From positions 7,912 to 71,911 of the forward strand of contig JAJFUB010000093.1 in the NCBI GenBank assembly GCA_021372615.1: DNA of 64,000 bases. The letters are read 5' to 3'. The position numbers were made by a program, and so were the translations under genes. Shown here piece after piece: positions 1,086 to 15,397 of this stretch (position 1 is the stretch's first letter; each line of letters begins with the position of its first letter). The DNA is from a bacterium. GTDB lineage: Bacteria; Armatimonadota; Zipacnadia; Zipacnadales; UBA11051. Under the pieces are notes generated by a model, which worked only from the letters and a program-made list of their open reading frames with translations, made no database searches and was not told the DNA's origin.

Positions 1086-2153
<1,068 letters not shown>

Positions 2154-2162
2154 ACGGCCGGG

Positions 2163-2205
2163 ACGGCAACGGCGGGAACGGTGAGGCGGGAACGGTGAGG
2201 CGGGA
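2163..2205 (+). repeat. ACGGCAACGGCG motif followed by a 14-bp tandem duplication (GGGAACGGTGAGGC x2)
   Basis: Read directly at 2163-2205. Confidence 0.8.
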
Positions 2206-2231
2206 CCACGGGAACGGTTGGCGCGAGGGTT

Positions 2232-2300
2232 GTAGTGCGGGCTTCCAGCCCGCCCTGAGTCCTCGGGCCTGACCTGGTGCGGGCTGGAAGCCCGCACCAC
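2232..2300. repeat. GTAG-type REP doublet (inverted pair of palindromes)
   Basis: GTAGTGCGGGCTTCCAGCCCGC (2232-2253) and GCGGGCTGGAAGCCCGCACCAC (2279-2300) are near-perfect inverted copies. Confidence 0.8.
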
Positions 2301-2310
2301 GCCCAAGGGC

Positions 2311-2340
2311 CGCGTGGGCGCGCGTGTCCTCACGCGCGCA
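2311..2340 (+). repeat. REP family A unit (CGCGTGGGCGCGCGTGTCCYCACGCGCGCA)
   Basis: The same or a closely related 30-mer recurs at 22472-22583, 38156-38234 and 38701-38776. Confidence 0.85.
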
Positions 2341-2440
2341 GCCGTGCCAGACGCCCGACGCGGATCGGAAGCCCGCCCTACGAGACCAGGGCGGGGCGTC
2401 GTGGCAGACCCTCGATGGACTGAAATGTAGCTGCAAGACC

Positions 2441-3313
2441 ATGCTGCCAACCGAACTGCTGCGCAGAATCCGCCAGATCGAGATCCGCACGGATCACCTC
2501 GCCAACGACGTGTTCGCCGGCGCCTACCAGTCCACGTTCAAGGGACATGGCATGGAGTTTGCGGAGGTGCGCGAATACCAGGCCGGTGACGACGTGCGGA
2601 CCATTGACTGGCGCGTGAGCGCTCGCACGGGCCGGCCCTATGTGCGCAAGTATGTCGAGGAGCGCGAGCTGACCGTGATGCTGGTGGTGGACGCCAGCGG
2701 CAGCATGAACTTCGGCACCGCCGAGACCACCAAGGCCGAGACGATGGCCGAGGCGGCGGCCACGCTGGCCTTCTCCGCCATCCGCAACAACGACAAGGTG
2801 GGGCTGCTGATCTTCACCGACCAGGTGGAGACCTACGTGCCCCCGCTCAAGGGGCGGCGGCAAGTGCTGCGCGTCATCCGCGAGATCCTGTACGCCAAGC
2901 CCCAGAGCCCTCGCACGGACCTGGCGCGCGCACTGGAGTATGTCAACCATGTGCTCACCCGCCGGGCCATCCTGTTCGTGATCTCCGACTTCCTCACCGG
3001 CGGCTATGCCAAGCCGCTGCAGGTGGCGGCGCGGCGGCATGATGTGGTGTGTCTGCGGGTCGAGGACCCGCGCGAGGTGACGGTGCCGCCGGCCGGGCTG
3101 TTCGAGCTGGAGGATGCCGAGACCGGCGCGCGGCGGATCGTGGACCTGTCCGAGGCGCTGGCCGAGACCATGCGCTTCCAGGCCACCCAGCGCAAGGGGC
3201 AGCTCAAGCAGACCCTGGCGCGCTACCACGCGGACCTGATCGAGATCCAGGCCGGGCAGGCGCCCGCCGAACCCCTCATGGCGTTCTTTGAGAGGCGGGC
3301 GAAGCGGCGATGA
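2441..3313 (+). CDS. DUF58 domain protein (MoxR partner, VWA-like)
   Basis: ELLRRIRQIEIRT, GHGMEFAEVREYQAGDDVRTIDWRVSAR, VVDASGSM and FVISDF. The start was moved from 2324 to ATG 2441 because the upstream extension is REP sequence. Confidence 0.92.
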   Translation: MLPTELLRRIRQIEIRTDHLANDVFAGAYQSTFKGHGMEFAEVREYQAGDDVRTIDWRVSARTGRPYVRKYVEERELTVMLVVDASGSMNFGTAETTKAETMAEAAATLAFSAIRNNDKVGLLIFTDQVETYVPPLKGRRQVLRVIREILYAKPQSPRTDLARALEYVNHVLTRRAILFVISDFLTGGYAKPLQVAARRHDVVCLRVEDPREVTVPPAGLFELEDAETGARRIVDLSEALAETMRFQATQRKGQLKQTLARYHADLIEIQAGQAPAEPLMAFFERRAKRR

Positions 3314-4590
3314 GCGGCCTGACGGCGGAACGGCAACGGCGTCCTCACCCCTACCCCTCTCCCTCGCTCCGCTGCGCTACGCTCCGGAGAGGGGAACGGC
3401 AGCCTCACCCCTTGCCCCTCTCCCTCGCTCCGCTGCGCTGCGCTCTGGAGAGCGGGGGACGACTCTGGGCGACCTTTGCTGGACACAGGAGTCCGTTGCC
3501 GTTGCCAGACACCAACCGCCACACGTCGGTCAAAGCCGCCAACATGTCTACACCCTCCACCCCTCCCCCGTGGGGAGGGGTCGCTGCGAAGCAGCGGGGG
3601 TGGGTTGCCGCTCTCGCGCTGTTGCTCCTGGCTCTCCCCCACCTCGCCGGCGCCGCGGGGACCATTGAGGCCACCGTGGACAAGCAGAAGGTGACTGTGG
3701 GCGAACCGTTCGTCTACATGGTTAACATGCTCGTGCCGCAGGGGGCCCAGGAGGACCTGCCCGGGGAGAAGGCCACCTTCAAGGGCCTGGAGGTCCGCAA
3801 CTACCAGCCGCAGGAAGTCCCGCAGACCGATGGCAGCCGGCAGGTTGTGCTGCGCTACACGCTCGTGTGCTTCGATGTCGGCCTGGCCGGGATCAAGGAC
3901 TTCCGCGTGCCGGTGCGGATGCCCAACGGCGACCAGGAGAAGTGGCTGGCCCCGCCGTGCGAAGTGACCATCGCCAGCGTGCTCCCCGAGAAGGGCCAGG
4001 TGCAGCCCAAGGGGTTTGCCGGGCCGATCATGCTGCCCTCAAGCTGGACGCAGTGGCTGTGGGCGGCGCTCATCGCCCTGCTGATCCTGGGGGCTGTGGT
4101 CGCAGCGATCATCCTGTGGCGGCGACGCCGACAGGCCCGGCCGACCGTGGAGCCCGAGCGCCTCCTGGCGCCAGATGAGGCGGCGCTGGCGGCGCTGGGG
4201 CGGCTGCGTGAGGAGGATCTCGTCGCGACCGGCAGCTTCCTGGCGTTCTACCAGCGGCTCGATGAGATCCTGCGGGCGTGGCTGCAGGCGCGGTTCGACA
4301 TCCCCGCCCTGGAACGCACGACGATGGGGACGATGTACTTCCTGCGCGCGCGGCGCGAGGCTGACTCGTGGCGCACGGGCGTCCTGGAGTTGCTGCACGC
4401 CGCCGACCGCGTGAAGTTCGCGAACCTGCCCCCGAGCGATGGCGAGGCCTATGAGCATGTGGAGCAGGCGGCGCAGGTGATCGAGACGGCCAAGCAAGCC
4501 GTGGCAGAGGCGGAAGCCGAGGCTGCGGCCCGGGCCGCAGCCGAAGCACAGGTGGCTGAGGCGAAGCAGCGGGGGGGGCGCCGGCGATGA
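3310..4590 (+). CDS. Bat-operon exported/membrane protein (BatD-like N-terminal domain, one TM, DUF4381-like C-terminus) with a repeat-derived N-terminal extension
   Basis: Signal-like WVAALALLLLALPHLAGA, then IEATVDKQKVTVGEPF. TM WLWAALIALLILGAVVAAIILWRRRR, then DEAALAALGRL...ADRVKFAN. Its ATGA overlaps the DUF58 stop. Alternative start at ATG 3544. Confidence 0.75.
   Translation: MSGLTAERQRRPHPYPSPSLRCATLRRGERQPHPLPLSLAPLRCALESGGRLWATFAGHRSPLPLPDTNRHTSVKAANMSTPSTPPPWGGVAAKQRGWVAALALLLLALPHLAGAAGTIEATVDKQKVTVGEPFVYMVNMLVPQGAQEDLPGEKATFKGLEVRNYQPQEVPQTDGSRQVVLRYTLVCFDVGLAGIKDFRVPVRMPNGDQEKWLAPPCEVTIASVLPEKGQVQPKGFAGPIMLPSSWTQWLWAALIALLILGAVVAAIILWRRRRQARPTVEPERLLAPDEAALAALGRLREEDLVATGSFLAFYQRLDEILRAWLQARFDIPALERTTMGTMYFLRARREADSWRTGVLELLHAADRVKFANLPPSDGEAYEHVEQAAQVIETAKQAVAEAEAEAAARAAAEAQVAEAKQRGGRRR
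3330..3502. repeat. MITE-like palindromic element (family B) bounded by ACGGCAACGG / CCGTTGCCGT
   Basis: Two tandem CCTCACCCC..CCCTCTCCCTCGCTCCGCTGCGCT..CGCT..GGAGAG units. The terminal 10-mers at 3330-3339 and 3493-3502 are inverted. A related copy lies at 42235-42330. Confidence 0.75.
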
Positions 4591-5597
4591 CCTTCGCCGA
4601 TCCGTGGATGCTGCTGCTGCTCCTCCTGCTGCCGGTGATCGGCTGGCGTCTGGCGCGCCCGGGCAAGACGGGCAGCGCGGTCTCGACCTATCCGGACCTG
4701 CGGCTGACCATGGCCCGCGGGCGCTCGGCCCGACCGTGGCTCGCGCGGCAGTTGCCGTGGGTGCGGCTGCCGGCGCTGGCCCTGCTGATCGTGGCCTGCG
4801 CGCGCCCGCAGGCCCCTGCCGGCGTGCGGGAGATCGGCGGCGCGGGCATTGACATCATGCTGGTGCTCGACATCTCCGGCAGCATGCAGGCCGAGGACTT
4901 CAAGCCCAAGAACCGCTTCACGGTGGCGCGCGAGGTGCTGCGCGAGTTCATCAGCAACGCCGGCGCCAATCGCCTCGGCCTGGTCGTCTTCTCCGGCAAG
5001 GCCTTCACACAGAGCCCCCTGGCCGCCGACCACCAGATCGTGAGCCAGTTGCTCGACCGCGTGCACATCGGGATGCTGGAGGACGGGACGGCCATCGGCA
5101 TGGCCATCGCCACCGCCGCGCACCGGCTGCAGGCATCCCAGGCGCGCAGCAAGGTCATCATCCTGCTGACCGACGGGGTCAACAACCGGGGCGAGGTGGA
5201 CCCGCCCACGGCGGCGGAGGCGGCGGCGGCCCTGGGGATCAAGATCTATGCCATCGGTGTCGGCAAGGAGGGCGGGGCGCCGGTGCCCGTGCCCGGAGCG
5301 CTGCTCGGGCCGCGCTATCTGACCGACCCCAAGACCGGGCGCGTGCTGATGACCAAACTGGACGAGCCGATGCTCAAGAAGATCGCGCAGATCACGGGCG
5401 GGAAGTACTTCCGGGCCACGGATGCCCAGGCGCTGCGCCAGATCTACGACCAGATTGACAAGATGGAGAAGTCGGAGTTCACCGCCAAGCGCGAGCGGCG
5501 CTATACGGAGCTATTCGGCAAGTACGCCGCCTGGGGCCTGGGGCTGCTGGTGCTGCAGACGCTGCTGGGAGCGACGTGGCTGCGCAAGGCGCCTTGA
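4587..5597 (+). CDS. batA: BatA-like VWA domain protein
   Basis: N-terminal MTFADPWMLLLL (BatA N-terminal TM), MIDAS DISGSM, GTAIG, LLTDGVNN and KIYAIGVG. ATGA coupling to the upstream gene. Confidence 0.9.
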   Translation: MTFADPWMLLLLLLLPVIGWRLARPGKTGSAVSTYPDLRLTMARGRSARPWLARQLPWVRLPALALLIVACARPQAPAGVREIGGAGIDIMLVLDISGSMQAEDFKPKNRFTVAREVLREFISNAGANRLGLVVFSGKAFTQSPLAADHQIVSQLLDRVHIGMLEDGTAIGMAIATAAHRLQASQARSKVIILLTDGVNNRGEVDPPTAAEAAAALGIKIYAIGVGKEGGAPVPVPGALLGPRYLTDPKTGRVLMTKLDEPMLKKIAQITGGKYFRATDAQALRQIYDQIDKMEKSEFTAKRERRYTELFGKYAAWGLGLLVLQTLLGATWLRKAP

Positions 5598-5603
5598 CGG
5601 CGA

Positions 5604-5710
5604 GGGGGCTGTCCCGCGGGCCGTACCCGCGGGGCTGTCCCCGACGACGAATGCAGAGGGGGGTCAGCCCCCTGCGGATCAACTGCGTTGACCCTCCGGG
5701 GACAGACCCC
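5604..5710. repeat. REP-like element of the GGGGCTGTCCC / GGGACAGACCCC type (family D)
   Basis: GGGGCTGTCCC twice (5604-5615 and 5631-5642), GGGGTCAGCCCC (5660-5671) and an inverted GGGGACAGACCCC (5698-5710). Confidence 0.65.
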
Positions 5711-5718
5711 GTGACACC

Positions 5719-6765
5719 ATGACTAACTACTTCAAGTGGGGACAACCTGAGGTGCTGGTGTGGCTGTGGGTGGCGCCGGTGCTGGCGCTGCTGGCGTGGC
5801 GGGCCATCCTGCTGCGGCTCGCGGCGGCGCGGCGGTTCTGCCCCACCGCGGGGGACCGACGCCTGGCGCTGCGGCCGCTGCTGGAGCGGCTGGTGCTGCG
5901 CTATGGGTTGGTAGTGCTGGCGACGGCGCTGCTGGTCGTGGCGCTGGCGCGGCCGCAGGTGGGGACGCACCGCGAGCGGGCGCAGCGCAAGGGCGCCGAC
6001 ATCGTGCTGGTGATGGACACCAGCCTGAGCATGGCGGCGGCCGACATGCAGCCCAACCGGCTGACGGCGGCGAAGCTGGCGGCCATCAACCTCGTCAACC
6101 GCCTGCCCAACGACCGCTTCGGGATGATCGTCTTCTCGGGTGATGCGCACCTGTACTGCCCGATCACCATTGACCATGACGCGGTGCAGATGTTCGTTGA
6201 CTCGGTGGAGGTGGGCGCGTCGCCGCAGCCCGGGACGTCGCTCGCGGCGGCGCTGCAATCCGCGGGCGAGGCGCTGGGCAACAGCGAGAGCAAGCACCGC
6301 GCCATCGTGGTGCTGAGCGACGGGGAGGACCTGGCCGGGCAGATGCTCGAGTCCGCCGGGCGGGTGGTCCGCGAGACCGCCGCCCGCATCGAGGTGCTGG
6401 GCTTCGGCAGCCCGCAGGGGGAGCCCATTCCCATCAAGGACGAACAGGGGAACGTGCGCGGGTTCAAGACCGATGAGAAGGGCCAGACCGTGATGTCGAA
6501 GCTGGGTGAGGAGGGGCTGCAGCAACTGGCGACGGTCGGCAAGGGCATGTACTTCCGCGCCATGACCCAGGGGGCGACCGATGAACTGGCCGGGCGCCTG
6601 GAGGCCATGGAGGGATCGCAGGTGGGGATGATGCTCTACACCGACTACGGCGAGCGCTTCCAGTGGCCGCTGGGGCTGGCGCTGGTGCTGCTGGCGCTGG
6701 AGGCGGTGCTACCGGAGCGGGTGCTGCGGCGGCGCAGGCAGGAGGCGGCGCATGAGCAGGGCTAA
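5719..6765 (+). CDS. batB: BatB-like VWA domain protein
   Basis: ALARPQVG, MIDAS DTSLSM, DMQPNRL, DRFGMIVFSG, PGTSL, VLSDGED and a C-terminal ERFQWPL. Confidence 0.9.
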   Translation: MTNYFKWGQPEVLVWLWVAPVLALLAWRAILLRLAAARRFCPTAGDRRLALRPLLERLVLRYGLVVLATALLVVALARPQVGTHRERAQRKGADIVLVMDTSLSMAAADMQPNRLTAAKLAAINLVNRLPNDRFGMIVFSGDAHLYCPITIDHDAVQMFVDSVEVGASPQPGTSLAAALQSAGEALGNSESKHRAIVVLSDGEDLAGQMLESAGRVVRETAARIEVLGFGSPQGEPIPIKDEQGNVRGFKTDEKGQTVMSKLGEEGLQQLATVGKGMYFRAMTQGATDELAGRLEAMEGSQVGMMLYTDYGERFQWPLGLALVLLALEAVLPERVLRRRRQEAAHEQG

Positions 6766-7441
6766 CCGGCGTGTCATCTCCCTGGTGACGTTGCTGCTGG
6801 GGCTGCCCTGGCTGGTGGGCTTTACCTTCCCCGGCGGGCTGCAGCGGCTGTGGCGGCAGGCGGACCGGGCCTTCAAGCGACAGCAGTACGACCGGGCCGA
6901 ACAGCTCTATGACCAGGCGCGGCAGCAGCAGCCGGACGAGTGGCGGCTGGCGTTCAACACCGCCGTGGCGCAGGCGGCGGGGAAGAAGCTCGACGTGGCC
7001 GCCAAGGGCTTTGAGAAGATCGCCGCCAGTGGCCCGCAGGAGTTGCGCGAGCCCGCGGAGTACAATGCGGGCAACTGCTACCTGGCCCAGCAGCAGAAGG
7101 ACCAGGCGATTGAGCACTACAAGCGGGCGCTGTATCTGAACCCCAACGACATGAACGCCAAGTGGAACCTGGAGCTGGCCAAGCGCCAGCAGAAGCAGGA
7201 CCAGCAGCAGAAGCAACAGCAGAAGCAGCAACAGAAGCAGGACCAGAAGAAGCAGAACCAGCCGCAGAAGCAGGACCAGCAGAAGAAGCAGCAACAGCAG
7301 CCCCAGGACCGGAAGATGGACAAGGACGAGGCGCGGCGCCTGCTGCAGTCGTTGAGCCAGGCCGACCGTGACCTGCAAAAGAAGATGGCCAAGCAGCGCC
7401 AGCAGCCGTTCCGCGAGGCGCGGCCGACCAAAGACTGGTAA
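6752..7441 (+). CDS. batC: BatC-like TPR protein with a Q/K-rich tail
   Basis: TPR motifs (AEYNAGNCY, AIEHYKRALYLNPNDMNAKWNLELA), a Gln/Lys tract, EARRLLQSL and a C-terminal KDW. Confidence 0.88.
   Translation: MSRANRRVISLVTLLLGLPWLVGFTFPGGLQRLWRQADRAFKRQQYDRAEQLYDQARQQQPDEWRLAFNTAVAQAAGKKLDVAAKGFEKIAASGPQELREPAEYNAGNCYLAQQQKDQAIEHYKRALYLNPNDMNAKWNLELAKRQQKQDQQQKQQQKQQQKQDQKKQNQPQKQDQQKKQQQQPQDRKMDKDEARRLLQSLSQADRDLQKKMAKQRQQPFREARPTKDW
7186..7310 (+). repeat. Low-complexity CAG/AAG coding tract (QQKQ/QDQQ repeats)
   Basis: CAGCAGAAGCAGGACCAGCAGCAGAAGCAACAG... read directly. Confidence 0.8.
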
Positions 7442-7443
7442 CG

Positions 7444-9201
7444 ATGCACAGGCATGCCCGTCGTCCACGGTGGCTGGTGATCGGGGCCCTGCTGGCCCTG
7501 CCCGCTTGCGCAGGCGCGCAGGCGCAGGTCACCGCGCGCGTGGACCAGCAGGCGGTCAGCCAGGACGAGACGGTGCAGTTGACCGTGACCGTGTCGGGCA
7601 GCGGCCTGAGCATGCTCACCGAACCGACGTTGCCGGACCTCAAGGGCTTCCGTGTCGCCGGCACCTCCACCCAGCAGTCCATCTCGCTCGTGGGCGGGTC
7701 CATGCAGTCGAGCATGAACTACGTCTATGACCTGGAGCCCACCCGCACCGGCAAGCTGACCATCCCCCCCGTCACCGTGACCCTCGGCGGCAAGAGCTAC
7801 CACACGCAGTCGTTCAGCATCATCGTCACTCCCGGCACGGGTGGGGGGGGCAGACGGGTGACACCGAACGTGCCCTTCGGCAGCGATCCCTTCGGGAGCC
7901 TGCCCGCAGGCCAGTCCGCGGACGTCAAGCAGACGGTGGACCGCAAGACTGTGTACGCGGGGCAGCAGATCACCTACACCTTTGCGTTCCTGCAGTGCGA
8001 GCAGCTCTTCGGGGATGTGCAGTACTCGCCGGCGGACACGCCCGGGTTCGTGGCCGAGGAGCTGCCCAATCCGCCCAACTCCACCGAGACGATCGGGGGG
8101 CGGACGTATTCGGTGCAGCGCCGGATGAAGGCCCTGTTCGCGACTTCGCCGGGCAAGCACACCATCGGCCAGGCGAGCGTCGCGGTGACGATGGACCCGA
8201 TGCTGGGCTCCGAGGACCTCGTGGCCGACCCGGTGGGGGTGCAGGTGCTGCCGCTGCCGACGGCGGGGCAGCCGGCCAGGTTCAGCGGGGCGGTGGGGTC
8301 GTTCGCGGTGCGCCTGCGGGTGGACCGGCAGGCTGTGCGGGCCGGGGAGACGCTCAACTGCGTGGTGGAGGTCAGCGGCAGCGGGAACATCCGGTCGCTC
8401 GGCGAGCCCGATCTGGCGCTGCCGGACTGGGTGCGGGTGTACAAGGCGGGCGAGAACCGCCGGGTGAGCCCCGGCGGCGGTGGGGGCGGCCCGGCCGTCA
8501 TCGGCGGGACGGCCACGTTCTCCTACCTGCTGCTGCCGCGCCAGGCCGGGACGCTGCGCGTGGGCCCGGTCAGCTACGCCTACTTCGACCCGCAGGCCCG
8601 TGCGTACCGCACGGCAACCAGCCAGGGGGCGGAGATCACCGTCACGCCGGGGTCGGGCACGGCCGCGCCCGTGGTCCCGGCGGATAACCTGCGCCCGGTG
8701 AAGACGGAGAGCGGCCGGGGTGTGACGCGACCGTGGGCGGGGCAGCGCTGGCTATGGTTCGTGCTCGCGCTGCCGCTGCTGGTGGTGCTGTGGGCGGGGC
8801 GGCAGCGCTGGGAGGCGGAGCGGCTGTTGGCGGCGCCGGAGCACGCGCGCGCCGGCAACGCCCTGGCCCTGGTGCACAAGCGCTTTGACCTCGCCGAGAA
8901 GGCCCTGGCCGCCGGCAACCACGATGTGTTCTATGAGGGTCTGCACGCGGCGCTGCTGGACTACATCGCCGACCGGACGACGGCGCCGCCGTCGGGGCTG
9001 ACGGCCGAGGTGGCCTGCGACCTGCTCGCCGCGCACGGCGCCGATCAGCCACTGGCCGAGGTGGCGCGGGCGCTGGTGGAGCGCACGGCGGCGGGGCGCT
9101 TCGCGCCGGGCGCGACTGATCCGGGCAAAGCTCAACAACTCGTGATCCAGTGCCGGCAGACGGTGGCGGCGTTGCAGCGGCAGGTGAGGCCCGATGCGTA
9201 G
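7444..9201 (+). CDS. batD: BatD family protein
   Basis: Signal peptide, repeated Ig-like BatD domains (VTARVDQQAVSQDETVQLTVTV; FSGAVGSF; SGSGNI; SYAYFDP) and a C-terminal TM. Confidence 0.88.
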   Translation: MHRHARRPRWLVIGALLALPACAGAQAQVTARVDQQAVSQDETVQLTVTVSGSGLSMLTEPTLPDLKGFRVAGTSTQQSISLVGGSMQSSMNYVYDLEPTRTGKLTIPPVTVTLGGKSYHTQSFSIIVTPGTGGGGRRVTPNVPFGSDPFGSLPAGQSADVKQTVDRKTVYAGQQITYTFAFLQCEQLFGDVQYSPADTPGFVAEELPNPPNSTETIGGRTYSVQRRMKALFATSPGKHTIGQASVAVTMDPMLGSEDLVADPVGVQVLPLPTAGQPARFSGAVGSFAVRLRVDRQAVRAGETLNCVVEVSGSGNIRSLGEPDLALPDWVRVYKAGENRRVSPGGGGGGPAVIGGTATFSYLLLPRQAGTLRVGPVSYAYFDPQARAYRTATSQGAEITVTPGSGTAAPVVPADNLRPVKTESGRGVTRPWAGQRWLWFVLALPLLVVLWAGRQRWEAERLLAAPEHARAGNALALVHKRFDLAEKALAAGNHDVFYEGLHAALLDYIADRTTAPPSGLTAEVACDLLAAHGADQPLAEVARALVERTAAGRFAPGATDPGKAQQLVIQCRQTVAALQRQVRPDA

Positions 9202-9952
9202 GCTCCTGCCGGCGGCGCTCATGTGGGTCGCTCTGCTCGCAGCGGGCGGGGGGCACGCGCAGGGAACCTCTCCCTTTGTCGCCGGGAACGCCTACTACCA
9301 GCGCGGCGACTACGAGTTCGCGCGGCAGCAGTATCTGGCGCAGTTGCAGCAGGGCCCGGTGACCCCCGCGTTGCTCTATGACCTGGGGAATGTGTCGCTC
9401 AAGCTGCAGCAGCCCGGCTGGGCCGTCCTGTACTATGAGCGGGCGGCGCTGTATACTCCGCGTGACCGGGACTTGCGGGCGAACCTGGCGGTCGCGCTGG
9501 CGAGCCGCCGGGCGCCGCCGGTTGGCGACGCGCCGGGCTGGCTGGAGTTCATCTGGCAGAACGCGCGGCAACTGTTCACGCTCAATGAGCTGACGGGCGC
9601 CACGATCCTGCTATATCTGGCGTCGTGCGGCCTGCTCGTGTGGCGCTTCCGCACGCGGGAGTTCCGCCGCCGCTACCTGTGGCTCATGGTGGCGACGCTG
9701 GTGCTGCTGGTGCTGGTGGGGACGCTGGCGGCCAGCAAGTGGCGGTCGGACTGGGACCCGGCGCGATCGGTGGTCGTGACGGATGGGACGCTGTACGCCG
9801 GGCCGGCGGACACCTTCCCGGCGGTGCGCAGCGTCTACCAGGGGGAGCTGGCGCGCGCGCTGCGGCACGAGGGGTTCTGGTGCGAGGTGGACCTGGAGAA
9901 CGGCAGCCAGGGCTGGGTGCTGCAGTCGGCCGTCGAGCCGGTGGTGCGGTAA
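9194..9952 (+). CDS. batE: BatE-like TPR + SH3 protein
   Basis: AGNAYYQRGDY, LLYDLGN, LYYERA..PRDRDLRANL, two TMs and an SH3b-like C-terminus (YQGELAR...WCEVDLENGSQGWV). Confidence 0.88.
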   Translation: MRRLLPAALMWVALLAAGGGHAQGTSPFVAGNAYYQRGDYEFARQQYLAQLQQGPVTPALLYDLGNVSLKLQQPGWAVLYYERAALYTPRDRDLRANLAVALASRRAPPVGDAPGWLEFIWQNARQLFTLNELTGATILLYLASCGLLVWRFRTREFRRRYLWLMVATLVLLVLVGTLAASKWRSDWDPARSVVVTDGTLYAGPADTFPAVRSVYQGELARALRHEGFWCEVDLENGSQGWVLQSAVEPVVR

Positions 9953-10005: not shown

Positions 10006-12237
10006 TTGCGAGCCGAGCGCTTACGCCCGTTCTACTACATCGGCGCCGGAGTGATCCTGCAGGGCCTGTCGCCGGTCCTGACCAAGCTGCTACTGACCAG
10101 CCTGTCGCCGGCCACGGTGGTCGGCGCGCGCTACCTGATCGCGGTGCTGTTCCTGCTGCCGTTCGGCTGGCGGCACACTTCGCCCCACGAGCACGAGCCG
10201 CCACGGCGGCGCGACTGGGTGGCGCTGTTCCTGGTGGGGGCGCTGGGTTCGGGCCTGGCCGCCCTGCTGTTCACCCGCGCCATTGACCTGACCTCGGCGG
10301 GCATCGCGACCTCTCTGTCCAAGACGGCTCCCATCTTCGTCGCCTTCTTCGCCTACTTCACGCTCAAGGAGCGCGTCACGTCGGCGCGGCTGCTGCTGGT
10401 GGGGCTGATGGTGGCGGCGGACCTGCTGATCGGCGCCGGGGAGATGCGCGCGGGGACGGAAGTCGGCCAGCGCCTGCTGGGGGACGGCATGGCCATCGGC
10501 GCCGGGGCGTTGCGCGCCATGGCGGAGATCCTCAGCAAGACGTCACTGCGGCGCTTCTACCCCTCGACCGTGGCCCTGTGGCGCTTCGGGATCGGCTTCG
10601 CGTTCACGGGGATCATCGCCGGGGTCAGTGGCGAGGTCGGGGCGCTGCGGCTGCTGGAGCCGCGGGAGTGGTGGCTGCTGCTGGTGCTGGGGATTGGCTG
10701 CACGAGCCTGTCCATGACATTGTACTACCGGGGCCTGCGCGAAGTGCCGGCCCACGTGGCGGTCAGCCTGCGCCTGCTGTCGGCGATCGTGACGGTGCTC
10801 ATATCGTGGGTGGTCCTGGGCGAGGCGCTCAACGCCCTGCACATCGCGGGCATCGCGATCCTGGTGGCGGGGGCGTACCTGATCGTGGTGCGCACCACGC
10901 GGCAGCCGGTGCATCGGGCCGCGCCCGCGGAGGCCGCGGGCCCCGGGGTGCGCCTGGGGCCGATGCAGACCCTGCGGGGCCGCGTGGCCGTGATGGTCGC
11001 CAGCATGATCGTCCTGACCGTCACCGCAGCCACCGTACTGTCGGTGCAGCACACGTGGACGGTGCTGAACGACCAGGTGCGGCTGACGATGGTGAAGACG
11101 GCCACGATGATCCTGCAACTGCGAGGCGTCGCCCAGCCGCCCAGTCCCGAGACCTACCGGCAGTACCTGGACCGTGTCCTGCGCGACAGCTTCACGGGGC
11201 GCTTCTACTCGGTGGACATCGAGTACCTGTGCGTGCTGGACGGTCAGGGGAATGTCATCGCCTTCGCCCGGCGCAGCGAGCTGGACATCCGCGACGCCCG
11301 CGGCCAGCCGATGCTCGGGGACGGGGAAGCGGTGGCGCTGCGCCTGTTGGAGTTGACGGAGACACGCGAGTTGCAGCGGCGGTACGACATCATCCCGATC
11401 GCCGCGGAGCTGAACCAGGGCGGGCGCGTGACGGGCATGGTCAAGATGGGGTGCCGACGCAGCCTCGTCTACCGTACCGCGTATGAGATCGCGCTGCGGA
11501 ACATGAGCCTGGCGATCCTGCTCATCATCGTGGGGGTGGCCATCTCGTACCGCCTGACCGATGTGCTGGCGCGGCCGCTGGAGGACCTGGCCGGCACAGT
11601 GCGACGCGTGGCGCAGGGCGAGCTGGATGCGCCGCTGGTGCCGCTGGGCAGCCGCGAGGTCGCCAGCCTGGGGGCGTCGGTGGCGCGCATGGCAGGAGAT
11701 TTGCGACAGGCGCGGATGCTGCGCGAGACGCTGGCGCGGCTGACGTGCCCGCAGGCACAGCAGGCGCCGCTGCCCCCCGTGAGCCTGTTGGTGCGCCTGG
11801 AGGGCGAGGACGGGGCAGGGCGGGAGGACCTGCTGCAGGCGCTCCTGGATGCTGTCTGCAGCAATGAGGGCCGGCTGGCGGCGGTGGCGCCCGGCCACGT
11901 GCTGGCGGTGTTTGGCGAGGCGGATCCCGAGCAGGATGATGTGCTGCGGGCGGTGGTGGCGGCGCTCGAATGGCGGGGAGCGGCCGGGGGGGCGCAAGTG
12001 GCGCTGGTGGACCTGGCGGGGGGGGAGGGCGCGACGGCGGCGGAACGGCTGGAGGCGCTGCGGGCGGTGCTAGAGCAGGCCGAGCCGGAGGGGGCGGGGG
12101 TCTACGTGACTCAGGCGGCCGCGGAGGCGGCCGGCGAGCACCTGGAGTCGGCGGCGAGCGGCGCCGGAGGGCTGCGGCGGGTGTGCGAACCGGAGGAGGG
12201 TGCCAACGAGGCCGAGACAGAAGAAGAGGAGTGGTAG
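10006..12237 (+). CDS. Fusion: EamA/DMT transporter (two repeats) + TM-sensor-TM + HAMP + degenerate class III nucleotide-cyclase-like domain
   Basis: DMT motifs (TAPIFVAFFAYFTLKERVT; SWVVLGEAL..HIAGIAILVAG), HAMP (ARPLEDLAGTVRRVAQGELD...EVASLGASVARM) and a cyclase-like segment (NEGRLAAVAPGHVLAVFG...DDVLRAVVAAL). TTG start is uncertain. Confidence 0.75.
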   Translation: MRAERLRPFYYIGAGVILQGLSPVLTKLLLTSLSPATVVGARYLIAVLFLLPFGWRHTSPHEHEPPRRRDWVALFLVGALGSGLAALLFTRAIDLTSAGIATSLSKTAPIFVAFFAYFTLKERVTSARLLLVGLMVAADLLIGAGEMRAGTEVGQRLLGDGMAIGAGALRAMAEILSKTSLRRFYPSTVALWRFGIGFAFTGIIAGVSGEVGALRLLEPREWWLLLVLGIGCTSLSMTLYYRGLREVPAHVAVSLRLLSAIVTVLISWVVLGEALNALHIAGIAILVAGAYLIVVRTTRQPVHRAAPAEAAGPGVRLGPMQTLRGRVAVMVASMIVLTVTAATVLSVQHTWTVLNDQVRLTMVKTATMILQLRGVAQPPSPETYRQYLDRVLRDSFTGRFYSVDIEYLCVLDGQGNVIAFARRSELDIRDARGQPMLGDGEAVALRLLELTETRELQRRYDIIPIAAELNQGGRVTGMVKMGCRRSLVYRTAYEIALRNMSLAILLIIVGVAISYRLTDVLARPLEDLAGTVRRVAQGELDAPLVPLGSREVASLGASVARMAGDLRQARMLRETLARLTCPQAQQAPLPPVSLLVRLEGEDGAGREDLLQALLDAVCSNEGRLAAVAPGHVLAVFGEADPEQDDVLRAVVAALEWRGAAGGAQVALVDLAGGEGATAAERLEALRAVLEQAEPEGAGVYVTQAAAEAAGEHLESAASGAGGLRRVCEPEEGANEAETEEEEW

Positions 12238-12290
12238 TCGCGGCCATCGAGAGGCAGGGGCCGAGGAGGGTTGAAGATGTCGGGCCTGGG

Positions 12291-12296
12291 TACAAT
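12291..12296 (+). promoter_or_regulatory. Candidate -10 box (TACAAT) 7 nt upstream of the ATG, possibly a leaderless transcript
   Basis: TACAAT at 12291-12296 and ATG at 12304. No -35 box at canonical spacing. Confidence 0.35.
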
Positions 12297-12303
12297 AAGG
12301 CCA

Positions 12304-12957
12304 ATGTGCTACCGGGATCGGTGGAGAGGCCGTCACGGCTTCACACTCATCGAGCTGCTGGTGGTGATCGCCATCATCGCGATCCTGGCGGCCATCCTTT
12401 TCCCCGTCTTCGCCCGGGCCCGTGAGAAGGCCCGCTCCACGCGCTGCGTCGCCAACCTCAAGCAACTCGGCAACGCCATGCGCATGTACATGGATGACTA
12501 CGACGGGCTCTTCCCCTGGTGTGTGGACATCGCCGACAAGAACCTGCCCGAGATCTGGAGCGACTACCCCGCCTGGCAGGTCCTGATCGCCTCCATGCCC
12601 CTCATGCACGATGTCGTGGACCCGTATGTCAAGAACAAGGAAGTGTGGCACTGCGCGTCGGACAAGGGGTTCGACGTGCTGGAGGATGCCGGCAACCTGC
12701 CGCTGCCGGCGCATCCGACCTGCTACAACGCCTTCGGGTCCAGCTACATGTACCGCACGGAGCTGACCTTCCGGCAGGCCACGCAGGAGAGCCTGCCCGA
12801 CCCGGTCGCGATCAATGTCCTGTTCGACGGGAGCGGCACCTGGCACGGGGGGAATGAGTGGGGGAGCTTCCGCTGGAACGTGCTGTACGGCGACGGGCAC
12901 GTGAAGACCACGAACCGTGGGCAGTACGACACAGCGTGGAACACGGCCGTGCAGTAG
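12304..12957 (+). CDS. Prepilin-type N-terminal cleavage/methylation, DUF1559-like protein
   Basis: [34 protein letters not shown]...C..NLKQLG.A..MY..DYD, and a C-terminal WH...[10 protein letters not shown]. Confidence 0.9.
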
Positions 12958-12970
12958 CGGCCACCCGACA

Positions 12971-15397
<2,427 letters not shown>

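Follow-up and report, generated by a model that had tools for sequence, protein, structure and literature searches.

A permease-sensor-HAMP protein with a degenerate cyclase domain at the end of the Bat operon in one order of Armatimonadota

What might a bacterium gain from a single protein that combines a small-molecule permease with a domain resembling a nucleotide cyclase from which the catalytic residues have disappeared? This question is raised by a gene in a stretch of 64,000 nucleotides (hereafter, the window) from the Armatimonadota genome assembly GCA_021372615.1, contig JAJFUB010000093.1, positions 7,912 to 71,911. The gene is an open reading frame (ORF) at 10006..12237 of the + strand that encodes 743 amino acids (aa), begins with TTG, includes its TGA stop codon and has no internal stops. 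We consider it probable that the product is a homodimeric inner-membrane signalling protein, descended from an EamA-sensor-HAMP adenylate cyclase, whose cyclase domain is now non-catalytic and which serves as a sensor/transporter accessory of the Bat (Bacteroides aerotolerance) system.

A previous interpretation, made from the letters of this DNA and a list of its translated frames (the sequence-only reading), had proposed that the ORF joins a two-repeat EamA permease to a transmembrane (TM) helix, a sensor, a second such helix, a HAMP domain and a C-terminal domain. Pfam, AlphaFold2 (AF2) and the homologues all agree with this layout, each part of which lies on the + strand. EamA repeat 1 (10045..10431, aa 14-142, TM1-5) contains the best PF00892 stretch and is helical in the AF2 model, and repeat 2 (10468..10896, about aa 155-297, TM6-10) contains the second stretch and corresponds to AF2 helices at 152-297. 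Over the two stretches PF00892 scores 136 bits, compared with a Pfam gathering cut-off of 28.2. The full-length AF2 model, which was built on a 22-sequence alignment, places ten helices in aa 7-297, and Foldseek matches this half to LicB, SLC35B1, TPT and YddG (TMt 0.65-0.78), i.e., to the 10-TM DMT fold. Many polar residues within its TM helices are invariant in the family alignment.

The fusion junction is a basic linker (10897..10980, aa 298-325) that is in frame in all homologues and is predicted to be disordered, with a predicted local distance difference test (pLDDT) below 50; the model shows disorder at 298-322. There follow TM11 (10981..11043, aa 326-346), which belongs to a very long helix at 323-373, and a family-specific alpha/beta sensor (11044..11487, aa 347-494) with the AF2 element order H-H-E-E-H-H-E-E. 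The elements after the long helix are H381-393, E402-412, E417-422, H441-452, H455-460, E462-471 and E474-484. TM12 (11488..11559, aa 495-518) is supported by hydropathy and by an AF2 helix at 488-517. It is followed immediately by HAMP (11566..11709, aa 521-568), which Pfam identifies as PF00672 at 32.3 bits against a cut-off of 25. After the HAMP helices, the model has a helix at 550-580 and then a domain of the beta-alpha-beta-beta-alpha-beta-alpha-beta type. NCBIfam adds weak matches to DMT and to the HAMP of sensor kinases, and WalK weakly matches aa 380-574. When the full model is submitted to Foldseek, its middle part matches a WalK model (WalK-YycH), while a profile of the sensor (A4) found nothing meaningful among Protein Data Bank (PDB) sequences. 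The order of secondary-structure elements and the WalK model match suggest that the sensor may be PDC/sCache-like.

DMT proteins such as YddG have both termini in the cytoplasm. Because of this, together with strong hydropathy peaks at 327-345 and 495-518 and the basic character of the linker, the most plausible topology has a cytoplasmic N-terminus, a 10-TM EamA unit, a cytoplasmic linker, TM11 running outward, a periplasmic segment at 347-494, TM12 running inward, and a cytoplasmic HAMP and C-terminus. Residues 296-326 contain six Lys or Arg and one Asp or Glu, and such positive-inside charge agrees with a cytoplasmic location.

The fusion itself is genuine. When aa 300-743 were used as the query, 21 full-length proteins (666-757 aa) were recovered; they are 43-93% identical in this part, all carry EamA and HAMP, and originate from JGI, ENA, NCBI and Logan assemblies. 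The alignment of the homologues is collinear across the junction. A scan of GTDB species genomes yielded another 20 loci, titled Armatimonadota, Armatimonadia or 'Ca. Zipacnadia' in nearly every case, and each is a single open frame of ~720-850 aa. The fused architecture is thus uninterrupted in 21 database proteins, in ~25 loci from metagenomes or metagenome-assembled genomes of different studies, and as one copy in each of 22 genomes. The DNA around the ORF is ~70% G+C, and its composition is unbroken at the proposed fusion point. The arrangement had seemed unfamiliar from the sequence, and this impression was borne out: the sources label the homologues only 'EamA family transporter' or 'DMT-like permease/HAMP', and full-text literature searches for EamA+HAMP and for EamA+HAMP+cyclase found no description of it. 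A literature search on pseudo-cyclases returned only general reviews of pseudo-enzymes.

Because Pfam and NCBIfam do not recognize the C-terminal domain, a family profile and a structure model were needed to establish its relationship to cyclases; the cyclase family PF00211 does not match the ORF even at E<=1. We built a profile (A2) of aa 572-743 from 22 homologues, and an alignment (A3) of six canonical cyclase domains, of which five are from this genome and one is from the relative P0030 that is discussed below. In hhalign, A2 aligns to A3 with 93% probability (E 3.4e-7, 119 columns). Among PDB sequences, hmmsearch with A2 finds Cya2, a guanylyl cyclase (2w01, E 3.6e-5), as well as a phytochrome-cyclase (6fht, E 1.2e-4), with the matches spanning profile positions 41-95. 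Higher-ranked PDB matches to de novo designed TIM barrels were disregarded, as they reflect repeats on a short low-complexity stretch. Of 1.84 billion representative proteins, 89 match A2 at E<=1e-3, and those scanned include ordinary PF00211 cyclases (P0048, P0087, P0094, P0106, P0040). Finally, the AF2 model of aa 572-743 has a pLDDT of 87.2 and a predicted template-modelling score (pTM) of 0.83, and its best 50 Foldseek matches in the PDB are all class III nucleotide cyclases (prob 0.99-1.00, TMq 0.42-0.62). The sequence-only reading had called the C-terminus class III cyclase-like and had suggested this structural comparison. Profiles and predicted structure together confirm the region as a class III cyclase-homology domain (11776..12186, aa 591-727), which shares the fold and the alpha2-beta2-beta3-alpha3 core with canonical cyclases.

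Two motif alignments had originally been drawn by eye. That of AAVAPGHVLAVFG with DKFIGDAVMAVFG is reproduced by hmmsearch (with 2w01) and by hhalign. The pairing of VSLLVRLEG with VLFADIxG fares less evenly: a beta1 strand is indeed predicted at 592-597, but the stretch lies outside the part covered by hhalign.

Given these alignments, we counted catalytic residues over the 43 non-canonical members of the family. Both hhalign and hmmsearch pair NEGRLAAVAPGHVLAVFG with HDGMLDKYMGDSIMAVWG, which puts A626 at the position of the specificity Lys and G630 at that of the second metal-binding Asp. The specificity Lys, in the beta2-beta3 hairpin, is Lys in 0/43 members. The second metal position is occupied by Gly in 35, Arg in 4, Ala in 2, Val in 1 and Asp in 1, this lone Asp belonging to the homologue L015. 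In alpha4, where the alignment is weak, the transition-state Asn is found in 0/43 members and the transition-state Arg in 3/43. The hairpin with the terminal phosphate-binding Lys is deleted in 43/43, and the structural motif E-x-D-D-x-L-R is retained in 41-43/43. The family has no conserved acidic residue after the predicted beta1 (592-597), so the initial claim that both metal-binding Asp residues are missing agrees with our analysis, with the reservation that the alignment of beta1 is less certain. The suspicion that the domain is shortened also proved correct: besides the Lys hairpin, it lacks the alpha1 segment, including the phosphate-binding GFT stretch, and the beta4-beta5 arm. The helical connector that precedes it in the AF2 model (11710..11775, aa 569-590) is ~11 aa shorter than that of P0030; the shortened part is presumably the 'cyclase transducer element' of HAMP-linked cyclases. 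Judged by these residues, the C-terminal domain is predicted to be a non-catalytic pseudo-enzyme.

The protein ends in an acidic tail (12187..12234, aa 728-743, ending EPEEGANEAETEEEEW; pLDDT <50), which had been noticed before and which is present throughout the family (C-termini of homologues in L007-L034, P0024, P0030 and P0033). The endings are ...EEEEW in subfamily A, ...ESTDE in B, ...REPED in C and ...DDGGE in P0030. They are nearly fixed in subfamily B, as ...A(E/A)S(T/P)DE, and in subfamily C, as ...VA(R/E)(E/D)PED. As a speculation, the tail could be a docking motif, e.g., for the metal-ion-dependent adhesion site (MIDAS) of a vWA domain.

Loss of catalysis does not appear to have released the domain from selection. 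We computed Nei-Gojobori ratios of nonsynonymous to synonymous substitution (dN/dS) for the window gene versus three homologues (L039, L040 and L015). The ratios are 0.10-0.18 for EamA, 0.03-0.23 for TM11-sensor-TM12, 0.23-0.36 for HAMP and 0.28-0.45 for the degenerate cyclase domain, compared with 0.7-1.3 for the linker at 298-325. These ratios indicate that purifying selection acts on the degenerate domain, though less stringently than elsewhere in the folded protein. It is the fastest-evolving folded part (56-87% identity, versus 81-99% for the sensor), and within it NEG, FG/WG and E-x-DD-x-LR hardly vary.

The likely ancestry of this domain is indicated by two relatives, P0030 (842 aa) and P0057 (833 aa), that consist of two EamA repeats, HAMP and a PF00211 domain scoring ~92 bits. 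The motifs FADITGF, DKYMGD, SVNLAQRIE and LKGK of P0030 make up a full catalytic set, and the residues D, K, D, N, R and K are intact in both proteins. Over aa 4-659, P0030 and the window protein share 41% identity; they have sensor-domain motifs in common, and the C-terminus of P0030 is acidic too. P0030 and P0057 both share the motif E-x-QDD-x-LRAV with the window family. All three proteins have the same EamA, sensor and HAMP chassis. Unlike the window gene, the genes for P0030 and P0057 retain the canonical cyclase, have no Bat genes beside them and precede an SBP_bac_1 gene. When the N-terminal 580 columns are used for a tree, P0030 and P0057 form one clade with support 99, which emerges from an unresolved base; this tree has no outgroup and does not distinguish one loss of catalysis from several. 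A regain of catalytic residues is improbable; the most economical ancestor is an active EamA-sensor-HAMP cyclase, from which catalysis was lost at least once.

Two observations on these relatives should be added. A gene for a periplasmic solute-binding protein (SBP_bac_1/8/11/6 profiles) lies directly after both genes with a live cyclase and after the subfamily-B genes with a dead one (L010 11262-12398, L038 4216-5349, L013 12311-13435 and L014 2338-3462). Such a protein is a possible co-sensor or might point to the substrate; no gene of this kind is present in the window. There are also short relatives of ~335-470 aa with sensor, HAMP and dead cyclase and without EamA, namely L044 (G027:C39, 11875-13281), P0027, P0035 and P0029; the genus in which they occur has no BatD.

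The setting of the gene provides the connection to the Bat system; like the relatives with a live cyclase, it had gone unremarked in the sequence-only reading. It is preceded by a co-directional Bat operon, identified with Pfam (1086..9952, + strand), that encodes a MoxR AAA+ ATPase (1086-2153), a DUF58 protein with a vWA domain (2324-3313), an unknown membrane protein (3310-4590), BatA (4587-5597), BatB (5719-6765), a BatC-like TPR protein (6752-7441), BatD (7444-9201) and a BatE-like TPR-SH3 protein (9194-9952). An M42 peptidase gene heads the same-strand series upstream of MoxR, and throughout the series gaps are small or genes overlap. The gap between the BatE-like gene and the ORF is 53 nucleotides (nt), within which neither a promoter-like nor a terminator-like site was found. 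This gene order, with the EamA-HAMP gene last, is shared by the window and the loci of at least 24 relatives (L007, L009, L011-L013, L015-L021, L023-L034, L041 and L042). These span three sequence subfamilies of the dead domain and, for subfamilies A-C and family f2, they are all the loci with a dead cyclase for which upstream sequence is available.

Among 301 Armatimonadota genomes, the sensor-domain family is found in 22, all of one order and with a single copy each, and BatD is found in 50. Within families f1, f2 and f4 of that order, 18 of the 19 BatD-positive genomes have the gene; elsewhere in the phylum, 31 BatD-positive genomes lack it. The Bat operon has thus been extended by this gene in one lineage only. 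The genes upstream of it are the same, and in the same order, as in known Bat or MoxR-vWA operons (MoxR, DUF58, BatA, BatB, TPR, BatD, TPR-SH3). To our knowledge, a transporter-sensor gene has not been described as a component of those operons; the EamA-HAMP gene sets apart the operons of this one Armatimonadota order.

Several features of these loci are recorded here for completeness. The unknown membrane protein at 3310-4590, which has two hydrophobic segments and no Pfam match, keeps its position in the operons of all relatives at 28-79% identity. The lone BatD-positive genome of f1, f2 or f4 without the gene has its BatD repeats in an unusually long, 845-aa frame (G041:C40:97417-98517). 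In L013, a second, stand-alone EamA gene (580-1563) lies at the head of the operon, between the M42 peptidase and MoxR. A prepilin-type N-methyl/DUF1559 gene begins ~30-70 nt after the ORF in the window (12271-12957, + strand) and in its closest relatives (L011, 12314-12964, and L015, 12275-12970); in other loci, additional copies lie at various places around the Bat operon. Converging on the window locus is a hybrid histidine kinase (12971-15397, - strand) with an N-terminal multi-TM region, two PAS domains, HisKA, HATPase_c and a receiver; it is not conserved beside the gene in other loci.

The function of Bat proteins has been elusive since the 1990s, with proposals that they export reducing equivalents to the periplasm or form a signalling complex there (PMC3557215). 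In Borrelia, the vWA domain of a BatA-type protein is periplasmic (PMC5700661). In the window, BatA-E have TM segments or signal peptides and MoxR and DUF58 have neither, and for this reason we propose that the EamA-HAMP protein may act as a bridge: with a permease, a periplasmic sensor and a non-catalytic cytoplasmic output, it would be well placed to join the periplasmic Bat proteins to MoxR and DUF58.

On this proposal, the gene would have become fixed as the last gene of the operon (MoxR-DUF58-BatA-E) in one Armatimonadota order, as an accessory of an envelope system. The periplasmic domain, and possibly also the occupancy of EamA by its substrate, would set the state of HAMP, which in turn would alter the conformation of a dimer of dead cyclase domains and their acidic tails. 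The readout would be a protein-protein contact, most plausibly with the MoxR AAA+ ATPase and the DUF58 vWA protein, which would be the two cytoplasmic products of the operon, and no cAMP or cGMP would be produced. At the same time, the EamA half may transport a small metabolite through the membrane on behalf of the Bat system. In a more specific version, which we think doubtful but worth stating, EamA exports or senses the small reductant or metabolite that has long been postulated to let Bat protect the envelope, and the dead cyclase and tail couple this transport to MoxR and DUF58. If so, the gene would offer a functional handle on Bat, and a pseudo-cyclase would serve as an adaptor between an AAA+ machine and a transporter.

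Another possibility is that the protein now works solely as an EamA transporter under the control of a periplasmic domain, and that the C-terminal remnant is decaying, with at most a role in folding or as a dimer scaffold. The rapid evolution of this domain and its trimmed loops fit such decay. However, its dN/dS values are well below 1, it is in frame and of similar length in all subfamilies of an order-level clade, its NEG, FG/WG and E-x-DD-x-LR motifs persist, and the model of it is confident. Moreover, a 468-aa relative without the EamA part, from a genus without BatD, keeps the sensor, HAMP and dead cyclase, which we take as an argument for an independent function of the C-terminal half. 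We therefore regard a vestigial tail as unlikely.

We consider it distinctly unlikely that a nucleotide or another small molecule binds in the remodelled pocket, so that the domain provides a second, cytoplasmic input rather than an output. Degenerate sites of cyclase dimers bind ligands elsewhere, e.g., forskolin in mammalian cyclases, and by analogy the same might hold here, where the conserved acidic residues E621, E642, D644 and D645 remain. However, the residues that contact phosphate, metal and base are all lost along with the alpha1 segment, and the residues that are conserved are those that canonical cyclases keep for structural reasons.

Class III cyclase domains act as dimers, and in mammalian cyclases the C1 and C2 halves together make up an active site and a degenerate one. 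The degenerate domain could accordingly be imagined to pair with, and regulate, one of the active cyclases of the genome, an option that the sequence-only reading had raised, and candidates exist: six canonical PF00211 proteins are encoded in the genome (five CHASE2-TM-cyclases and a single cyclase-AAA-TPR protein), which have canonical catalytic motifs and could make cAMP. An active partner encoded nearby was sought and rejected, as all six are on other contigs (C100, C55, C153, C159, C74 and C37; L001-L006). Nothing links them to the window protein: none is near the locus or co-varies with the gene, whose conserved neighbours are Bat genes and not cyclases. In addition, the beta4-beta5 dimerization arm is deleted, and HAMP and the two TM helices favour homodimers. 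Together, these points make a heterodimer very unlikely.

It is highly improbable that the protein is still an enzyme that makes a cyclic nucleotide or some other product with catalytic residues that have migrated. Pseudo-enzymes sometimes retain activity via relocated residues (PMC10211241), a precedent that bears on this case by analogy, and L015 has its Asp at the second metal position; against this, neither the beta1 region nor the beta2-beta3 hairpin has a conserved acid, and the Lys, Asn, Arg and terminal Lys are absent or deleted across the family. Finally, that an assembly or frameshift artefact joined two genes, an outcome that would have undone the sequence-only reading, is untenable because the same unbroken, in-frame architecture is conserved in >40 homologues from independent assemblies, and we found nothing in favour of it, although the junction is a low-complexity, fast-evolving linker.

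The explanation that we prefer, a non-catalytic signalling protein working with the Bat system, must nonetheless be weighed against four points. First, the beta1 region, and with it the first metal-binding Asp, is outside the profile alignment. Second, evolution is faster in the dead domain than in the rest of the protein, and part of the domain may be under relaxed constraint. Third, genus g5 of family f3 keeps dead-cyclase versions, one of full length and one without EamA, with no BatD in the genome, which implies that the protein can function without Bat. Fourth, the full-length AF2 model is moderate (pLDDT 69, pTM 0.42), and contacts between domains are not readable from it.

It is useful to compare the protein with better known systems. 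HAMP-linked class III adenylate cyclases include the mycobacterial Rv3645 type, and solved cyclase domains include Cya2 (2w01), CyaC (1wc1) and Rv1625c (4p2f). The window protein shares with them the TM-sensor-TM-HAMP-cyclase-homology layout, the fold and the central core; it differs in its missing catalytic residues, alpha1, dimer arm and Lys hairpin, in failing to match PF00211, and in the 10-TM EamA unit before the sensor. Transporters are fused to histidine kinases in CbrA, which has an SSS transporter (bioRxiv 10.64898/2026.03.10.710862), and in Ks-Amt5, which has an Amt transporter (PMC5764959). As in these transceptors, a complete secondary-transporter fold and a cytoplasmic signalling module reside in one polypeptide, so that 'transceptor', the term offered by the sequence-only reading, would be a reasonable label. 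Here, in contrast, the transporter is of the DMT/EamA type, the putative output is a dead cyclase instead of a kinase, and a periplasmic sensor and HAMP are added between the two. Degenerate signalling domains act as non-catalytic modules in GGDEF/EAL proteins, in the C1/C2 pseudo-site of mammalian cyclases and in pseudokinases. The domain in the window protein is similar to these in keeping an enzyme fold under selection although its catalytic residues are gone. For those examples ligands or partners have been identified; the window domain differs from them and is, in addition, truncated.

What is new is therefore a pseudo-cyclase output on a transporter-sensor chassis that appears to have been recruited to the Bat operon. 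The finding exposes a gap in annotation, in that databases name these proteins EamA transporters only and the signalling half goes unnoticed. The occurrence of live and dead cyclases on one chassis provides a system for asking what role a cyclase-homology domain has after catalysis is lost. The live versions are transporter-cyclase fusions, and they bear on an old question, namely whether adenylate cyclases use their membrane anchors as receptors or as transporters. For the Bat system, the strict linkage of the dead version, which would place a small-molecule permease and a periplasmic sensor in the operon, is a testable clue to function.

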